DNA from: Spirochaetia bacterium
GTDB taxonomy: Bacteria > Spirochaetota > Spirochaetia > DSM-16054 > Sediminispirochaetaceae
Reading direction: 5' to 3'
DNA length: 64,000 nt
NCBI GenBank assembly: GCA_034520965.1
Contig: JAXHMY010000001.1
Span: 896,001-960,000 of the forward strand
In this document: in pieces, positions 39,001 to 51,000 of the stretch
How the letters are laid out: each line of letters begins with the position of its first letter
How positions within the stretch are numbered: the stretch's first letter is position 1
Position numbers: made by a program

Positions 39001-42000
39001 GGCCCCCGGAAATACAGTTTTCGTGCATTATCACCGCAGTAAAAATGAGGCCCAGGCGGTAGCGAAGGATGTAGAAGCCGCCGGTGGTACCCCAATTCTA
39101 ATTCAGGCCGACCTGGCCACCGATGCCGGCTGCGGAAAGCTGGCCGACGAGGTAAAGGCCCGCACCGATACCCTGGATGTGCTGGTTAACAACGCCGGAG
39201 ATCTGCTGGATCGGCACTCCCTGGAGGAGACTACCTGGGACATCGCCACCCGTACCTTCGAGCTCAATGTGTTCTCGGTGATGCGGGTTACCGCCCTGCT
39301 CCTGCCCTTGCTCAAAAAGGCGGAGAAGGCCAATATTATCAACATTTCTTCGGTAGCCGCCCGCAACGGTTCTCCTACCGCAATAACCTATGCCTCGGCC
39401 AAGGGAGCGGTAGACACCTACACCCGCGGCGCGGCCAAGGGTCTGGCTCCCTCGATTAGGGTGAATGCAATTGCCCCGGGAATTATTCTTACCCCCTTTC
39501 ATGACAAGGCTACCCCGAAGGACCAATTAGAGAAGTTTATGAAAGCCACCCCCGTGGGTTATGCCGGACAGCCGGAGGAAATTGCCCGGGCTATCCGCTT
39601 TGTCCTTGAGACGCCCTTTATGACCGGTGAGACAATCGATATCAACGGCGGCATGAATATGCGATAGGCCGGCTGGGCCTATCTGTTACCGGCTGCGTCA
39701 AGCAGCCGGTAGTAGAGGCGGTTCAAACCGTTTTTGCGTTCAAAGGAGGGCACCAAGCCCTGGGGAAGGTAGCTGTGAAACTTTGGTTTGACGCTGCGGA
39801 TCTCCTCGATACTGCCGCCCTGGTATACCTCGGCAAAGACCGCCAGCACCCCCTGCAACACCTGGGAATCGCTATTGACCCGTATATAGATACTGTTCTG
39901 CCGGGTATTCATAAAGAGGTAGCGCACCGTAATGGAACACTCTTCGAATAGATTGCCCTCCTCTCTCTCGTCTTCCGAAAAGGGTAGCTGGGAACGACCG
40001 AAATTGATAAGGTACTCCATAATCTCGAAGGAGTTTTTCAGGTCGTCCAGCAGATAGATAAACTGCTTTTGGCGTTCCCCTGGATGTAAGTGCGATATTG
40101 TCCCCGGCAGTCGTTCCATAGGCTTTCGATACGTATTATATAACGGCTTTCTTAATATTGAAAATAATTTTTGTAAAGATGTGATAGCTCCTGGTGTGAA
40201 CTATCGCACAAACCCCGTTTTTTAGATACACTGCTCCCATGCAAAGCGATACATCACAAACAAATGGACGTCCGGTAGCAAGCCGGTCGATAGAGATGGA
40301 AAGTTACGAATGCGGCCCGGGCCGCATTATTACCAAAGGTATTCTGCGGGACGACCGTCATATACAGTTCAACGGCTTTAACGGCGAGGCCCAGCCCACG
40401 GGGCGCTTCCACAGCATCAAAGCCGGCATAGAGATTGATGTGGAGAGCATGCGAATCGAGCAGATCAATGTCGAGCTGCAGGATGTTCCCCATGCCGAAT
40501 GCCGGGAGCTGGGCAGCCGGTATTCCCAGCTGCAGGGGCTGCACATCGAATCAGGTTTTACCCGGGCGGTACTGAAGCTGCTGGGGGGCAATAAGGGCTG
40601 TGCCCACCTGACTCATTTGATTATCACCATGGGACCGGCGATGGTACAGGCCGCCTTCACTTATCAGACCCGCTCAGAGGCCTCGGAGACTCCCAGCCGG
40701 GAGCAGGTGCACAACTACTTTATCGACAGCTGCCACATCTGGCGGGCCGGCGGTAAGTATGCTCTGAAGCACGGATAGAAGGGGCAGTATCGGATGGCAC
40801 AACTAATAGTAACGGATTTTGACGGGGTGGTATGCGACAGCGTGCTCGAGTGTCTGCTGGCGGCGCATAACGCCTGGGAACAACTGCAGGGCGGAACCGG
40901 TTCGCAGCGGATTCTAGACGTTGATACTATCCCGAGCCAACGGCAAAGCCGTTACCGGGAACTGCGGTCGTACCTGCGCGGGGCCGAGGACTTTATTCCC
41001 CTGTTTCTGACGGTGGAGCGGGAGCTGGAAGTGAGCTCACAGAGCGATTTTGATCTGCTCCGCCGCCGCCTCCGCAACCAGCTGCCGCTGTACCAACAGG
41101 CATTCTACACTGAAAGGGATTACCTGCGCCGGGAACACCGGGAGCTCTGGCTGGAACTGAACCCCCTGTTTACGCCGATCGACAGGGCTCTGGGCAGCCG
41201 AGCCACCTTCGAGGATGTGCACATTCTTACCACCAAGCGGCAGGCAGATGTGGAGGACATACTCGGGTTTCACGGCATAGCCTTTCCCTCCGGGCAGATT
41301 CATTCGGTACAGTCGGACGGTAAGATAGAGCGGCTCCGGGCCATTATGGAGTCGACCGGAGCAGCACCGGCCCGCACCCTGTATGTGGAAGACCAGATCG
41401 ATTATCTGATTTCCGCCGCGCCCCTGGGCGTAGAGGTGCTGCTGGCCGAATGGGGATATGTGTCCGAGGAGCAGCGCAGCGCAGCGGTAGAACAAAAAAT
41501 ACCCCTGCTGAGCCGGGAGGAGCTTGCCGAACTGCTGCTGGACTGAGCTGGACTAAGCGAGATTGTGGTGAGCAAGAGCATTAATCCAAGTACAGCCTTA
41601 TTGAGTGCCCCCTTATCTGCCGAAGGGGCCGCCTAGAGCAGGCCCCTCGGGGAAGGGTGCTGCACAGCTTCCTCCATAAAAAAACCACAAAAAAAACCGC
41701 CCCCCGAGTACGAGGAGCGGCGAACAGAAGAAAATGTAATTAGAATGCCAAGAGTCCGATACTGGAGAGGAAAATTACAAAGATGAAAATGGGGATGATG
41801 TAGCGCACCAGGAAGAACCAGGTGTTTGCTACGCCCCGTACAGATTCCAGTTTACCGTCGTTGGTAATTTCATCGGTGGCGCCCTTCTTTTTCCAGAACC
41901 AGCCCACTGCGATTGAAGCACCCAGGGTACCCAAGGGCAAGCTGATGTTGCTTCCGAAGTAGTCGAAGAGGCCGAAAATGTTCTGGCCAAAGATGGTAAA

Positions 42001-48000: not shown

Positions 48001-51000
48001 TCAAGCAATCCACAGTACTCAAAAAAATTCCTGAGTAAGAAGTGGCGCACCCTCAGGGAAGAATCCGGGTACACCCTGGATGAGGTAAGTACCGAATTGG
48101 GGATAAGCCCCTCATATCTGAGTAAGATAGAAACCGGACAGGCCAACATTTCATTTGATGTACTCCAGCGGCTGGCCGACTTCTACAACCAAAACATTCT
48201 CTACTTTTTTGAGGAAGAGGATGCAGATACTAAGCTGGTAAAACATGCGAGCGGTTCGACAATTGATATCGGATTAGAGGGTGTCGCGATTACTAACTTG
48301 GTGGCCGATAAAACCGCCCATGTAAAAAGCATGTATTATACCATTCAACCCAGCTGCGGCAACTATGTTGACCACAGCCATTTTGGTGAAGAGTTTGTGT
48401 ACCTGATAGAGGGTCAACTGGAATTTATCCTGAACGACACCCAGGTCTATAATCTAGAACCCGGGGATTCCCTGTTTTTCCACTCCTCCGAAAAACATAA
48501 GTGGATTAATAACGGCAGTACTGTTGCTACCGCCCTGTGGATATATTCACCCTTCCGGGAATAAAACTGGCCTACTAATAATATCGCCCTCAGTCGTCTT
48601 CGTACAACTCGTGTATCTCGTCCCAGGCTTCCGGTTCGCCGGCCCGCAGGCGCTCCAGTAATAGAAACTGGCTGGTAAGGATATCGATATCACGCTTTTT
48701 CACCTCTTCGGGGGAGGTTTCCTGGGCCAGCTTTATTTCCTCGACTTCCTTTGGATCGAGAGAGGCAATCCGCTCGAGTTCATTGTGGATATCCTTCACG
48801 CGAAAGCGCAGAAAGCCTTTTACGGGCAAAAATACAGGAGGCTCATATCCCTTTTTTTCAAGATCACGGGCGGTCTTCTCGATGGCATCGTCTGTGGTAA
48901 AATGGGTGCTTTTATTTAGTTCCGCTTTTTTGTGTTCAACATACTCTTGTAGATTCATGTATTCCTCCTACCGTACATAATCATTGTTTTTTTGATATCT
49001 TTCAAGTTTTTTTTTGCTGTATTCAGCAATTCTCAATTTGGATAGTGTAATTACACTATCCAAATTGAGAATGCCTCCAAAAGCCGGTGTATAAAAATCG
49101 CGAAGAATTTTGATGCGAATTCTCAATTTGGAAGTCAGAAGACTTCCAAATTGAGAATCGCTGTGCTGTATTTCACTTGAAATCCCTTTGTGATATAGTA
49201 TCCGTAGGATGTCACCCCTAATTATCACCGGAATTGCCTTCAGTTTAAGCTTTGATGCCTTTGCCGTATCCCTCTCAAACCGCTGCGCATTAGAAAAATG
49301 TACGCTGCGGCATGCGGTTGTCGTTCCTTGAACATCTGAGCTGAAAAGCCCCCTACTTCCATCCTGCAGCGTGATGGCCGCATAAAAAAATGTCCCCTCC
49401 CCTTGACCTAAACTATGTAAATTGTTATTTTCTAATCGATATTTATTTATTGATATATTTTTAACTATAAATAGGAGGCAGGAATATGGCACAGACACAA
49501 AAGAGTACCCAGGTAACTGGTTCGACGGCAGCACTCAACGAAATGATCGGCAGGGTTGCTGAGGCACAGAGGGTCATGGCCCGCTACAGTCAGGAGCAGA
49601 TCGACATTATTTTCCGCGAGGCGTCCCTGGCGGCCAACCGAAAGAGAATTGAGCTGGCAAAGCTCGCTCACCAGGAAACCGGAATGGGGGTGCTGGAAGA
49701 CAAAATCATTAAGAACCATTTTGCCGCTGAGTTTATCTACAATAAGTATAAAGATATGCGCAGCTGTGGAGTAATAGAATGGGATGAGGCTCAGGGAATG
49801 ATGAAAATTGCAGAACCGATAGGGGTGATAGCAGGGGTAGTCCCTACCACCAATCCCACCTCTACCACTATCTTCAAGGCACTCCTGGCACTCAAAACCC
49901 GTAACGGAATGGTATTCTCACCCCACCCGCGTTCGGCCGCCTGCACAATAGAAACAGTCAAGGTTATTCTACAGGCGGCGGTGGCAGCCGGAGCCCCGGA
50001 GGATATCCTGGCCTGTATAGAGGCCCCCACGGTCGAGCTCTCACAGCGGCTTACTGCGGCACCCCAGATATTGGCATGATCCTTGCCACCGGAGGTCCGG
50101 GTATGGTAAAGGCGGCCTACTCCTCAGGCAAACCGGCCATCGGGGTCGGATCCGGCAATACTCCTGCACTCATAGACGAGAGCGCCGATCTGAAGACTGC
50201 AGTAAGCTCGGTGTTGATGAGTAAGACCTTCGATAACGGGATGATCTGCGCCTCCGAACAATCGGTGGTGGTTGCCGAAGAGGTGTATTCAAGGGTAAAG
50301 CAGGAGTTCACCCGGCAGGGGGCCCATATTCTGTCTGCCAAAGAGCGGCAGGCGGTGGCAGGGGTGCTCCTGAAAAATGGAAAATTGAATGCGGCCATAG
50401 TTGGTCAGCCGGCTTCAGCGATTGCCAAAATGGCCGGGGTCGAAGTTCCCGCGGATACAAAGGTGCTGATTGGAGAAGTGAAACAAATTGGCACAGATGA
50501 ACCCTTTGCATTTGAGAAACTTTCTCCGGTACTGGCCATGTACCGCGCAGCGGATTTTGAATCCGGCCTCGCCACTGCCCAGAAGTTGGTGGAGTTCGGA
50601 GGGCTGGGCCACACCAGTGTGCTCTATACCAACCCTGCCAACCACTCCAGAGTCCGCCTGTTTGGCGAATCGATGAAAACCGGTCGGACCTTGATAAATA
50701 TGCCCTCCAGCCAAGGAGCTATCGGGGACTTGTATAATTTCAAACTGGAACCTTCGTTAACTCTCGGCTGCGGCAGCTGGGGAGGCAACTCGGTAAGTGA
50801 AAACGTAGGCCCCTCCCACCTTCTGAATATTAAAACTGTAGCCCACAAGCGGGAGAATATGTTGTGGTTTCAGATGCCCCCAAAGCTCTATTTCAAACCC
50901 GGCTGCCTTGAATATGCACTCGACGACCTGGCCGGAAAGCAAAGGGCTTTTATTGTCACCGACGAGTTTCTAGCTCGCAACGGCTATCTGGACACCATCA

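Follow-up and report, generated by a model that had tools for sequence, protein, structure and literature searches.

A PurN-fold formyltransferase fused to an ADP-forming acyl-CoA synthetase and its candidate role in catabolism of kynurenine-type compounds

A 64,000-nucleotide stretch of a Spirochaetia genome (the window) holds a gene cluster built around a protein that joins a formyltransferase (FT) to an ADP-forming acyl-CoA synthetase (ACD) (Table 1). Collectively, the evidence points to catabolism of an aminobenzoate- or kynurenine-type compound. The undescribed formyl/acyl-CoA pathway proposed in the initial annotation, which named neither substrate nor direction, is supported, and strengthened by replacement of ACD with an unrelated ligase and by a common promoter motif. 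Two uncharacterised enzyme subfamilies, whose members are now mislabelled "acetate-CoA ligase", "PurN" or "isopropylmalate/homocitrate synthase", are thereby defined and given a candidate role. Among the titles and abstract openings searched, which took in few subscription papers and no supplements, the fusion, the cluster and anaerobic use of formylkynurenine are undescribed.

Table 1. Features of the cluster and their positions in the window
Feature	Position	Strand	Basis
Stem resembling an intrinsic terminator (11 pairs, then a T run) at the end of the DRE-TIM/NSS operon	41696..41721	-	Match to consensus only; region has 8 sites of this kind, shuffles 9.1
NSS (SNF-family) sodium:amino-acid symporter, 455 aa	41740..43107	-	PF00209, 7e-66; 24/66 loci
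DRE-TIM metallolyase, distinct subfamily, about 405 aa	43193..44411	-	PF00682; motifs in 50 members
TTGACAAKGTT motif before DRE-TIM gene: -35 box plus conserved extension, putative operator	44506..44516	-	Motif count
Second TTGACAAKGTT motif, promoter-like site before fusion	44565..44575	+	Motif count
FT domain of PurN fold with altered GAR site (residues 1-262)	44691..45476	+	Pfam, residue alignment, Foldseek
Complete ACD, phospho-His518 (SHTGS) plus ATP-grasp domain	45477..47645	+	Pfam, motifs, Foldseek
MerR-HTH/Cro-HTH/cupin regulator, 286 aa from TTG	47704..48564	+	Pfam; 30/66 loci

Architecture of the fusion protein

A single open frame (44691-47645, plus strand) encodes the 984-residue fusion. 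Pfam assigns Formyl_trans_N to residues 15-197 (44.6 bits versus a cut-off of 26.1), together with CoA_binding(_2), Succ_CoA_lig and ATP-grasp_5. The AlphaFold model (pLDDT 91.2, pTM 0.91) matched 8wzu (TM by target 0.91) and the PurN structures 3tqr and 1cde (TM 0.84 and 0.89) in Foldseek, in agreement with an earlier model (pTM 0.88) that had matched ACD and GAR transformylase structures. Frame, domains, model and structural matches thus bear out the union of a PurN-fold FT with a complete ACD. Among 74 fused sequences, S517-H518-T519-G520-S521 and H135, P136, D138, L139, D178, G180 and P181 are invariant. The earlier claim of invariance therefore stands for D178-GP and SHTGS but not wholly for VHPADL, where A137 is Gly in 23 of 116 FT sequences. 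N133 is Gly in 18 of the same 116, and in 27 of 161.

CoA-binding, ligase and ATP-grasp domains and the phospho-His place the ACD part in the ADP-forming acyl-CoA synthetase superfamily. It scored below the curated cut-offs for acetate-CoA ligase (ADP-forming) (473.8 versus 567.15) and 4-hydroxybutyrate-CoA ligase (484.6 versus 1300). Domain order, phospho-His and ATP-grasp are shared with 4-hydroxybutyrate-CoA ligase 8wzu, ACD1 4xyl, PatZ 9it0 and DddX 7cm9, whereas the extra N-terminal FT and scores under all NCBIfam equivalog cut-offs set the fusion apart; PatZ bears a GNAT domain where the fusion bears FT.

FT is distinct from PurN

FT H135/D178, which we take to be catalytic, align with PurN H108/D144, and R93/D97, presumably the folate Arg/Asp, with PurN R64/D68; all are invariant in 161 of 161 sequences. 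The PurN GAR phosphate loop (G-S/T-N) is missing, the S12-N13 position reading K/N-T/S, and PurN M89-R90 is replaced by V-W. G-D-W of the sister clade corresponds to N213-x-Q/K-x-R217 in the FT acceptor helix, and the ribose-binding acid residue of PurN was not found. As judged from these alignments, FT keeps folate and catalytic residues and has lost PurN's GAR site. FT sequences form their own clade (support 1.0), whose nearest sister clade includes PurD-PurN fusions, and FT scores under the PurN profile TIGR00639 cut-off (64.6 versus 150.1 bits).

PurD-PurN fusions in the sister clade could suggest that FT is an ordinary PurN with an incidental partner, as could the purN of this assembly, which lies apart in the pur operon as previously noted and is itself split by a frameshift. 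We regard this as extremely improbable: GAR-site residues differ across the whole FT clade, pur genes are absent among the recurrent neighbours of FT loci, and genome G049 holds both FT and a separate sister-type copy. A 351-genome sample around G049 returned its FT at 376 bits, only sister-type matches (≤242 bits) in 33 other genomes, and no further core FT. A plasmid search found ordinary purN only, and an atlas search gave FT only generic formyltransferase names.

Stand-alone FT follows benzoate-family CoA ligases

The earlier count of 113 of 114 FT matches with synthetase domains was reproduced, but that search covered only proteins of 541-1722 residues, and its length filter accounts for the apparent universality of the fusion. 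Searching proteins of 144-459 residues with FT gave 45 matches (41 with E ≤ 3.5e-22), including many stand-alone forms of 249-260 residues; in two GTDB loci (L055, L056) FT stands alone with sequence present on both sides. FT is accordingly no obligate fusion. The reported phylum spread also needs amending, as deltaproteobacterial loci hold stand-alone FT, with Ca. Adiutrix (L013) the exception.

Of 43 evaluable loci (50 unfused loci listed minus 7 with <200 bases upstream), 38 have stand-alone FT immediately after an AMP-forming CoA ligase from a single clade of the benzoate family, and the remaining five all hold a DRE-TIM gene. The ligase passes TIGR02262 (504.7 versus 375.25) and has anthranilate-CoA ligase 4wv3 as best PDB match (425 bits; benzoate ligase, 379). 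Its clade-wide pocket motif is KL/MFFGYARD, where benzoate ligase has FFAYGLG. A second ligase shares 55% identity with proteins that carry the annotation 2-aminobenzoate-CoA ligase and lies behind FT in seven loci from few lineages (L058, L073, L081-L084, L106). Because FT stands alone behind an unrelated AMP-forming benzoate-family ligase, it appears tied to aromatic acyl-CoA, and not to ACD as such. Most aromatic evidence comes from this stand-alone clade, which is 41-47% identical to the window FT. A complex prediction for stand-alone FT and its AMP ligase scored 0.00, a value that decides neither for nor against a complex. Ring-cleavage hydrolase Oah was detected in one of 50 carrier genomes, the ligase-type carrier G049; the second ligase-type genome, G048, gave no match. 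Genome G046 has FT, DRE-TIM, aminotransferase and NSS, with ACD not found.

The DRE-TIM partner

The DRE-TIM start (44411) was set from an alignment of 50 members. The extra base at 44337-44339 that shifts its frame is absent from contigs of all four runs and is an assembly error. R38 and D39 occur in 50/50 members, E69 in 46 with Asp in four, and the metal His pair HxH is kept; by these motifs the subfamily is assigned to the DRE-TIM metallolyase superfamily. Homocitrate, isopropylmalate and citramalate synthases share its D-R-E motif, metal His pair and GK(K/H)SG. Unlike these enzymes, the subfamily has A/S162 at the synthase Glu of SxED, has lost HxxGxH, with W/Y310 and P315 at the His positions (50/50), and carries a new invariant E120 (n=50); SxED and HxxGxH are present in 6ktq, 3rmj and paralogues of the same genome. 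The protein also falls below every synthase cut-off. In homocitrate and isopropylmalate synthases the Glu-His pair serves acetyl-CoA deprotonation. With Glu and His positions lost in the aligned members, the homocitrate-synthase-like condensing partner of the initial annotation is not supported. Absence of this pair, along with a feed by aminotransferase or 2-hydroxyacid dehydrogenase, points instead to 2-oxo-acid cleavage.

Neighbours, importers and regulation

Neighbours were counted by tblastn over 66 GTDB loci, of which 58 show the fusion. DRE-TIM occurred in 46, aminotransferase in 31, MerR-cupin regulator in 30, NSS in 24 and DctP in 20, close to the shares reported previously for 77 loci. 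Aminotransferase membership holds for those 31 loci and not for this window, which has none; the best match in the 86%-complete genome is 29%. A 2-hydroxyacid dehydrogenase is found in nine of the 66 loci, never with the aminotransferase, and all nine have TRAP. Five "Sumerlaeota" loci have a hydantoinase/amidohydrolase context instead. The DUF2889, HAD, SufE and SDR genes to the left are not counted as part of the cluster, since DUF2889 alone recurs, in two relatives.

The ABC binding protein is nearest to 4evq/4ey3, whose ligands are presumably of benzoate type, and TrpX-like binding proteins in L099 and L100 fell short of the cut-off (196 and 179 versus 390 bits). TRAP binding proteins are nearest to 4p47, 4nq8, 4pdd and 4p9k, which we take to bind pantoate or erythronate, and not to aromatic binders; TRAP structure searches named no ligand. 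These TRAP matches and the paired amino and hydroxy entry genes would also suit an aliphatic substrate. DRE-TIM would then cleave a 4-hydroxy- or 4-oxo-2-oxo acid (homoserine, 2,4-dihydroxybutyrate or pantoate type) by a retro-aldol or retro-Claisen reaction, and FT-ACD would handle the C1 or acyl fragment. Read by eye, a DRE-TIM paralogue in G049 near a sugar-type ABC system and GlcD/F-like genes, and a PanB-like pair near L195, fit as well. An aliphatic substrate is nonetheless unlikely, as formaldehyde would need no formyltransferase, and the benzoate-family ligase, 2-aminobenzoate ligase and kynureninase would be left unexplained.

Relatives of the regulator align from an ATG at 47734. TTGACAAKGTT, a motif first spotted by eye and then counted, and so chosen after looking, is present in 23 of the 31 loci that have the MerR-cupin regulator and in 2 of the 36 that lack it. 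The 3.35-Mb genome has seven copies, and the five others do not precede related genes. The motif is a likely operator, a prediction drawn from sequence. A spaced-palindrome search upstream of DRE-TIM did no better than shuffles (best 6/29 versus shuffle maximum 4-6).

Linkage to kynureninase and Fhs

Kynureninase starts 8 bases past the fusion stop in one metagenomic locus (L114) and lies 6.4 kb upstream in four loci of one lineage (L051, L060, L062, L063). It is present in this genome and in 22 of 50 carrier genomes, 28 showing none, versus 0 of 400 others of this genome's own phylum. Within a Synergistota sample, 8 of 13 carriers had it versus 27 of 138 (Fisher p 0.002, kin not independent), and within the order of G023, 2 of 2 carriers versus 9 of 129. 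As kynureninase would bypass steps 2-3 of the route below, its presence may reflect no more than a common niche.

Fhs matched in 46 of 50 carriers, some only as fragments, and in this genome; four of the 66 loci contain it, and in L017, L029 and L031 it follows DRE-TIM and NSS in the same orientation. Replacement of Fhs by the fusion is ruled out by this retention. The HypX N-terminal domain and the ALDH1L1 hydrolase domain likewise combine a formyltransferase fold with a CoA-handling domain, and the PurN-fold domain of HypX is proposed to formylate CoA (PMC6802093). Their partner is a crotonase-fold decarbonylase or ACP and their product CO or CO2, while FT is partnered by ACD or aryl-CoA ligase. 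Following HypX, FT might shift formyl between 10-formyl-THF and CoA, with ACD interconverting formyl-CoA and formate with ATP, which would duplicate the Fhs reaction by another route, and a CoA ligase or DRE-TIM is indeed always near FT. We doubt this: Fhs is retained, even in-cluster, a benzoate-family enzyme is an unlikely formate ligase, and DRE-TIM would have no role.

Proposed pathway

From domains, residues, gene linkage, ligase replacement and co-regulation we infer a route, including every substrate, its direction and steps 2-5, for oxygen-free catabolism of N-formylkynurenine/N-formylanthranilate-type compounds to pyruvate, 10-formyl-THF, anthranilate and ATP; we judge its chances evenly balanced. 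In step 1, NSS or a TrpX-like ABC system would import the amino acid, and TRAP its 2-hydroxy or 2-oxo form; the 2-hydroxy form of formylkynurenine is, to our knowledge, not a familiar metabolite. Tryptophan dioxygenase was not found in this genome, so the substrate must be scavenged. Aminotransferase or D-2-hydroxyacid dehydrogenase would then yield a 4-aryl-2,4-dioxo acid, with the N-formyl group stopping its cyclisation to kynurenate (step 2). DRE-TIM would split C3-C4 via a pyruvate enolate bound to the metal; the products would be pyruvate and either N-formylanthranilate or, without a further step, its CoA ester (step 3). FT would move formyl from N-formylanthraniloyl-CoA to THF, and the 10-formyl-THF would be converted by Fhs to formate and ATP or enter C1 metabolism (step 4). 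Reversible ACD would form and discharge aroyl-CoA, freeing anthranilate and ATP (step 5). In aromatic-degrading deltaproteobacteria, the same FT would act with the AMP-forming ligase, anthraniloyl-CoA being kept for ring reduction.

The proposed metabolites are common to the aerobic kynurenine route (KynA-KynB-KynU) and 2-aminobenzoyl-CoA pathways, and kynureninase and a 2-aminobenzoate-CoA-ligase-like gene are linked to the cluster. In contrast to the aerobic route, this genome has no dioxygenase, formyl would pass to THF and not be hydrolysed, and the C3 unit would leave as pyruvate with ATP gain.

The same linkage evidence fits the opposite role, in which FT would use 10-formyl-THF to place a protecting formyl group on kynurenine or another aminoaryl acid and so prevent cyclisation of the keto acid, with N-formylanthranilate as end product or the formyl group recycled. 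Kynurenine is the more stable metabolite, and Fhs in the operon could supply formyl-THF. This role seems improbable, however, since kynurenine is already handled by kynureninase, and loci that lack aminotransferase or DRE-TIM but have FT following an importer and an irreversible AMP ligase would be poorly explained. A biosynthetic role, whether in a secondary metabolite or in the orphan N-formylaspartate route to quinolinate of Clostridium butylicum, is very unlikely. NadA is found in only 3 of 50 genomes, and in five genomes without nadA the nadC gene lies about 8-10 kb ahead of the fusion, but importers and catabolic-type regulators dominate, and DRE-TIM lacks the acetyl-CoA base. With nadC in only 7 of 50, a general quinolinate route is ruled out.

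We further propose, tentatively and with less confidence than the route itself, that N-formylkynurenine is fermented by strictly anaerobic bacteria from several phyla, including some of the gut and termite gut, through two unrecorded reactions, a reversed-polarity DRE-TIM acylpyruvate thiolase and a PurN-derived N-formylanthraniloyl-CoA:THF formyltransferase. ATP would be conserved at two points, and sulfate-reducer-type aromatic degraders would be cross-fed. Should the proposed route hold, gut, digester and sediment anaerobes would offer an oxygen-free sink for kynurenine-pathway metabolites and a source of anthranilate, and an N-aryl formamide would become a usable C1 donor by way of a CoA thioester. 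Cultured carriers include Thermovirga lienii, Gudongella sp., Cuneatibacter sp. and Sedimentibacter.

RNA-run contigs of a relative (about 90-95% alike) lie over parts of all four genes, an observation that is not proof of transcription.

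Two divergent operons in one regulated unit

The window carries two divergent operons, one running from the gene of a DRE-TIM metallolyase to that of an NSS amino-acid symporter and the other from the fusion gene to that of a MerR-cupin regulator (Table). The initial annotation proposed that a PurN-fold formyltransferase (FT) is joined to a full ADP-forming acyl-CoA synthetase (ACD). This is borne out by a single 984-aa frame with FT at residues 1–262 followed by the complete ACD, a confident AlphaFold prediction (pTM 0.91), and Foldseek matches to both ACD structure 8wzu and PurN structures. 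The motif TTGACAAKGTT, chosen after inspection and containing a -35 box, precedes both operons; 23 of 31 loci that have the regulator contain it, versus 2 of 36 that lack the regulator. Its presence at both operons and its tracking of the regulator therefore indicate that the divergent genes are one unit.

Contigs of all four runs (4/4) lack one surplus base of the DRE-TIM gene, which we thus consider intact from 44411. The purN gene between purM and purD is also frameshift-split in this assembly, likely by an assembly error of the kind seen at 44337. Beyond the cluster, an adhE-like gene and the following Fe-S gene each lie in two frames and are whole in a relative (locus L002). A multi-copy repeat separates the cluster from adhE; here, contig depth in three DNA runs was up to ten- to twentyfold higher, with many loose ends. 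Among the genes left of the cluster, DUF2889 alone recurs (L004, L007).

Coordinates of the cluster, its surroundings and selected features elsewhere
Feature	Position	Strand	Remark
SDR, SufE-like, DUF2889 and HAD genes	38939-41546		left of cluster
NSS symporter gene	41740..43107	-	
DRE-TIM gene	43193..44411	-	
Surplus base	44337-44339		within DRE-TIM gene
FT-ACD fusion gene	44691-47645	+	
MerR-cupin regulator gene	47704..48564	+	
Depth peak	~48800-49160		repeat
adhE-like gene	49486-52115		
Fe-S gene	52151-54228		
purN of pur operon	G000:C1:729137-729698		own genome, outside window
PanB- and IlvD-looking genes	L195:15403-19367		other genome
DRE-TIM paralogue and neighbors	L198:4889-13351		other genome
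Molybdoenzyme and kynureninase	L199:7254-11005		genome G049

A modified formyltransferase of sparse distribution

FT residues H135, D178, R93 and D97, kept in 161/161 family sequences, align with H108, D144, R64 and D68 of E. coli PurN, of which we take the first two to be catalytic and the others to be folate residues. Despite this likeness, the GAR loop and the acceptor helix of the family depart from those of PurN, and a plain PurN is accordingly very improbable. The residues make it most likely that folate use has been retained and that the partner substrate is a new one. A tree was built from 286 FT-like domains, namely those of 200–340 aa among 323 collected proteins plus that of the window. 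The FT clade (support 1.0, one sister sequence inside) comprised 116 fusions together with 45 shorter sequences, a few or more of which are fragments of fusions. An earlier count of 113 fused forms among 114 reproduces, although the candidates were restricted to long proteins; shorter forms also occur, and fusion is not obligatory. The sister clade includes PurD-PurN and PurN-5-formyl-THF-cyclo-ligase fusions; in P0200, P0204, P0206, P0235, P0264 and P0270 a long PurN-like domain is joined to the cyclo-ligase.

FT is distributed widely but sparsely across phyla. Record titles label its members as Spirochaetota, Bacillota, Synergistota, 'Ca. Sumerlaeota' and deltaproteobacteria. None was found in 400 other genomes of the window's phylum, and frequencies in other samples were 13/151, 2/131 and 1/351. 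The contig, of 2010 bases, has the same name and match in loci L052 and L053; one of these loci is filed with a Synergistales genome and the other with a Phycisphaerales genome, so that one of them is misbinned.

Two unrelated CoA ligases accompany FT

The fusion was seen in 58 of 66 GTDB loci. Fifty unfused loci were listed, 43 with evaluable upstream sequence. In 38 of these 43, metagenomic and including close kin, an AMP-forming ligase of one clade directly precedes FT, often with overlapping stop and start; the same slot is therefore filled by two unrelated CoA ligases. The remaining five contain the DRE-TIM gene. The AMP-forming ligase is of the benzoate family, with anthranilate-CoA ligase 4wv3 as nearest structure, and has Gly where benzoate ligase has Ala at a ring-adjacent position that presumably faces an ortho group. 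Seven stand-alone FT loci have a second ligase, 55% identical to proteins annotated as 2-aminobenzoate-CoA ligase. A review places ligase specificity residues around the pocket (PMC8388817).

A second, stand-alone ACD (~700 aa) in nine DRE-TIM operons (L012, L014, L016, L017, L021, L023, L029, L037, L039) parallels the two AMP-forming ligases of deltaproteobacterial loci. No ACD was found in genome G046. A creatininase-family amidohydrolase lies beside stand-alone FT in 16 metagenomic loci (L075, L076, L085-L096 and others) and in L059.

A DRE-TIM enzyme that has lost synthase signatures

The DRE-TIM gene occurs in 24 of 29 fused loci with full flanks. The five exceptions are those labelled 'Sumerlaeota', and the one such genome examined encodes it elsewhere (65%). 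Its description as homocitrate-synthase-like did not hold: the window protein scores below every synthase cut-off in profile comparison, and in 50 members A/S replaces the Glu of SxED, W/Y and P stand in place of the His residues of HxxGxH, and E120 is invariant. At these Glu and His positions it differs from 6ktq, 3rmj and same-genome paralogues. By its sequence, then, the enzyme is predicted not to be a synthase.

An aminotransferase of either of two families is present in 31 of 66 loci (22 with NSS) and a D-2-hydroxyacid dehydrogenase in nine, all with TRAP; the two never co-occur. Since either would feed the DRE-TIM enzyme, a 2-oxo acid is its likely substrate, which we infer is cleaved via a metal-bound enolate. 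In L198, a paralogue (48%), also without the Glu/His pair, accompanies an ABC system of the sugar type together with genes that look like GlcD/F. In L195, two PanB-looking genes and an IlvD-looking dehydratase, judged by eye, converge on the cluster.

A possible kynurenine-type route

Kynurenines are the common amino acids whose keto acid carries a 4-oxo-4-aryl group, to which N-formylkynurenine adds a formyl. Kynureninase (TIGR01814) exceeded the cut-off in 21 of 50 carriers of FT, was a fragment in one more and was not found in 28; background in the window's phylum was 0/400. It occurred in 8/13 carriers versus 27/138 non-carriers in the phylum of G044 and in 2/2 versus 9/129 in the order of G023, with kin not independent in either comparison. 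The gene starts 8 bases past the fusion in L114; in four related loci of Synergistaceae it lies upstream of the fusion, at a distance of 6.4 kb. A TrpX-like binding protein adjoins DRE-TIM and aminotransferase genes in two loci. Of 50 carriers, 46 retain formate-THF ligase (Fhs), whose gene lies within the DRE-TIM operon in three loci; the ring-cleavage hydrolase Oah was found in G049 only (1/50). Counting against a kynurenine-type substrate, besides the 28 carriers in which no kynureninase was found and G046, in which no ACD was found, TRAP proteins resemble sugar-acid binders, no dioxygenase was found in the window's genome, and the context of 'Sumerlaeota' loci differs. An aliphatic substrate is improbable.

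In the route we propose, imported substrate would be converted to a 2,4-dioxo acid and cleaved to pyruvate and N-formylanthranilate(-CoA); the formyl group would pass to THF, and anthranilate would be released with ATP. FT would require a ligase because a thioester would turn the anilide into a better formyl donor, for which FAICAR is a precedent. We give this route as a whole about even odds. Protective formylation by FT is an unlikely alternative, if slightly less so than formyl-CoA exchange, which PMC6802093 proposes for HypX; a biosynthetic role is more doubtful still. The folds of FT, ACD and the DRE-TIM enzyme are already known. The fusion, both altered subfamilies and the cluster appear undescribed, as had been claimed for the cluster, as far as the literature searched extends, most subscription papers being outside its reach. 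The accessible part of PMC12451956 covers kynureninases from oral Proteobacteria only.

In the 'Sumerlaeota'-labelled loci L006, L008, L010, L011, L024 and L065, the fusion is accompanied by nadC, birA, coaX, carbamoylase, hydantoinase, racemase, metallo-beta-lactamase and amidohydrolase genes and, in most, by genes for an Fe-S protein and a cysteine-dioxygenase-like cupin. Five such genomes contained nadC (5/5) and mostly kynureninase (4/5), with nadA found in none; this gene set may represent an unusual quinolinate source. A molybdopterin oxidoreductase follows FT in L094, L099, L100 and L101, with a flavin oxidoreductase in three, and in G049 the genes of a related molybdoenzyme and of kynureninase are divergently oriented. 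These molybdoenzymes are candidates for oxygen-free opening of the indole ring.
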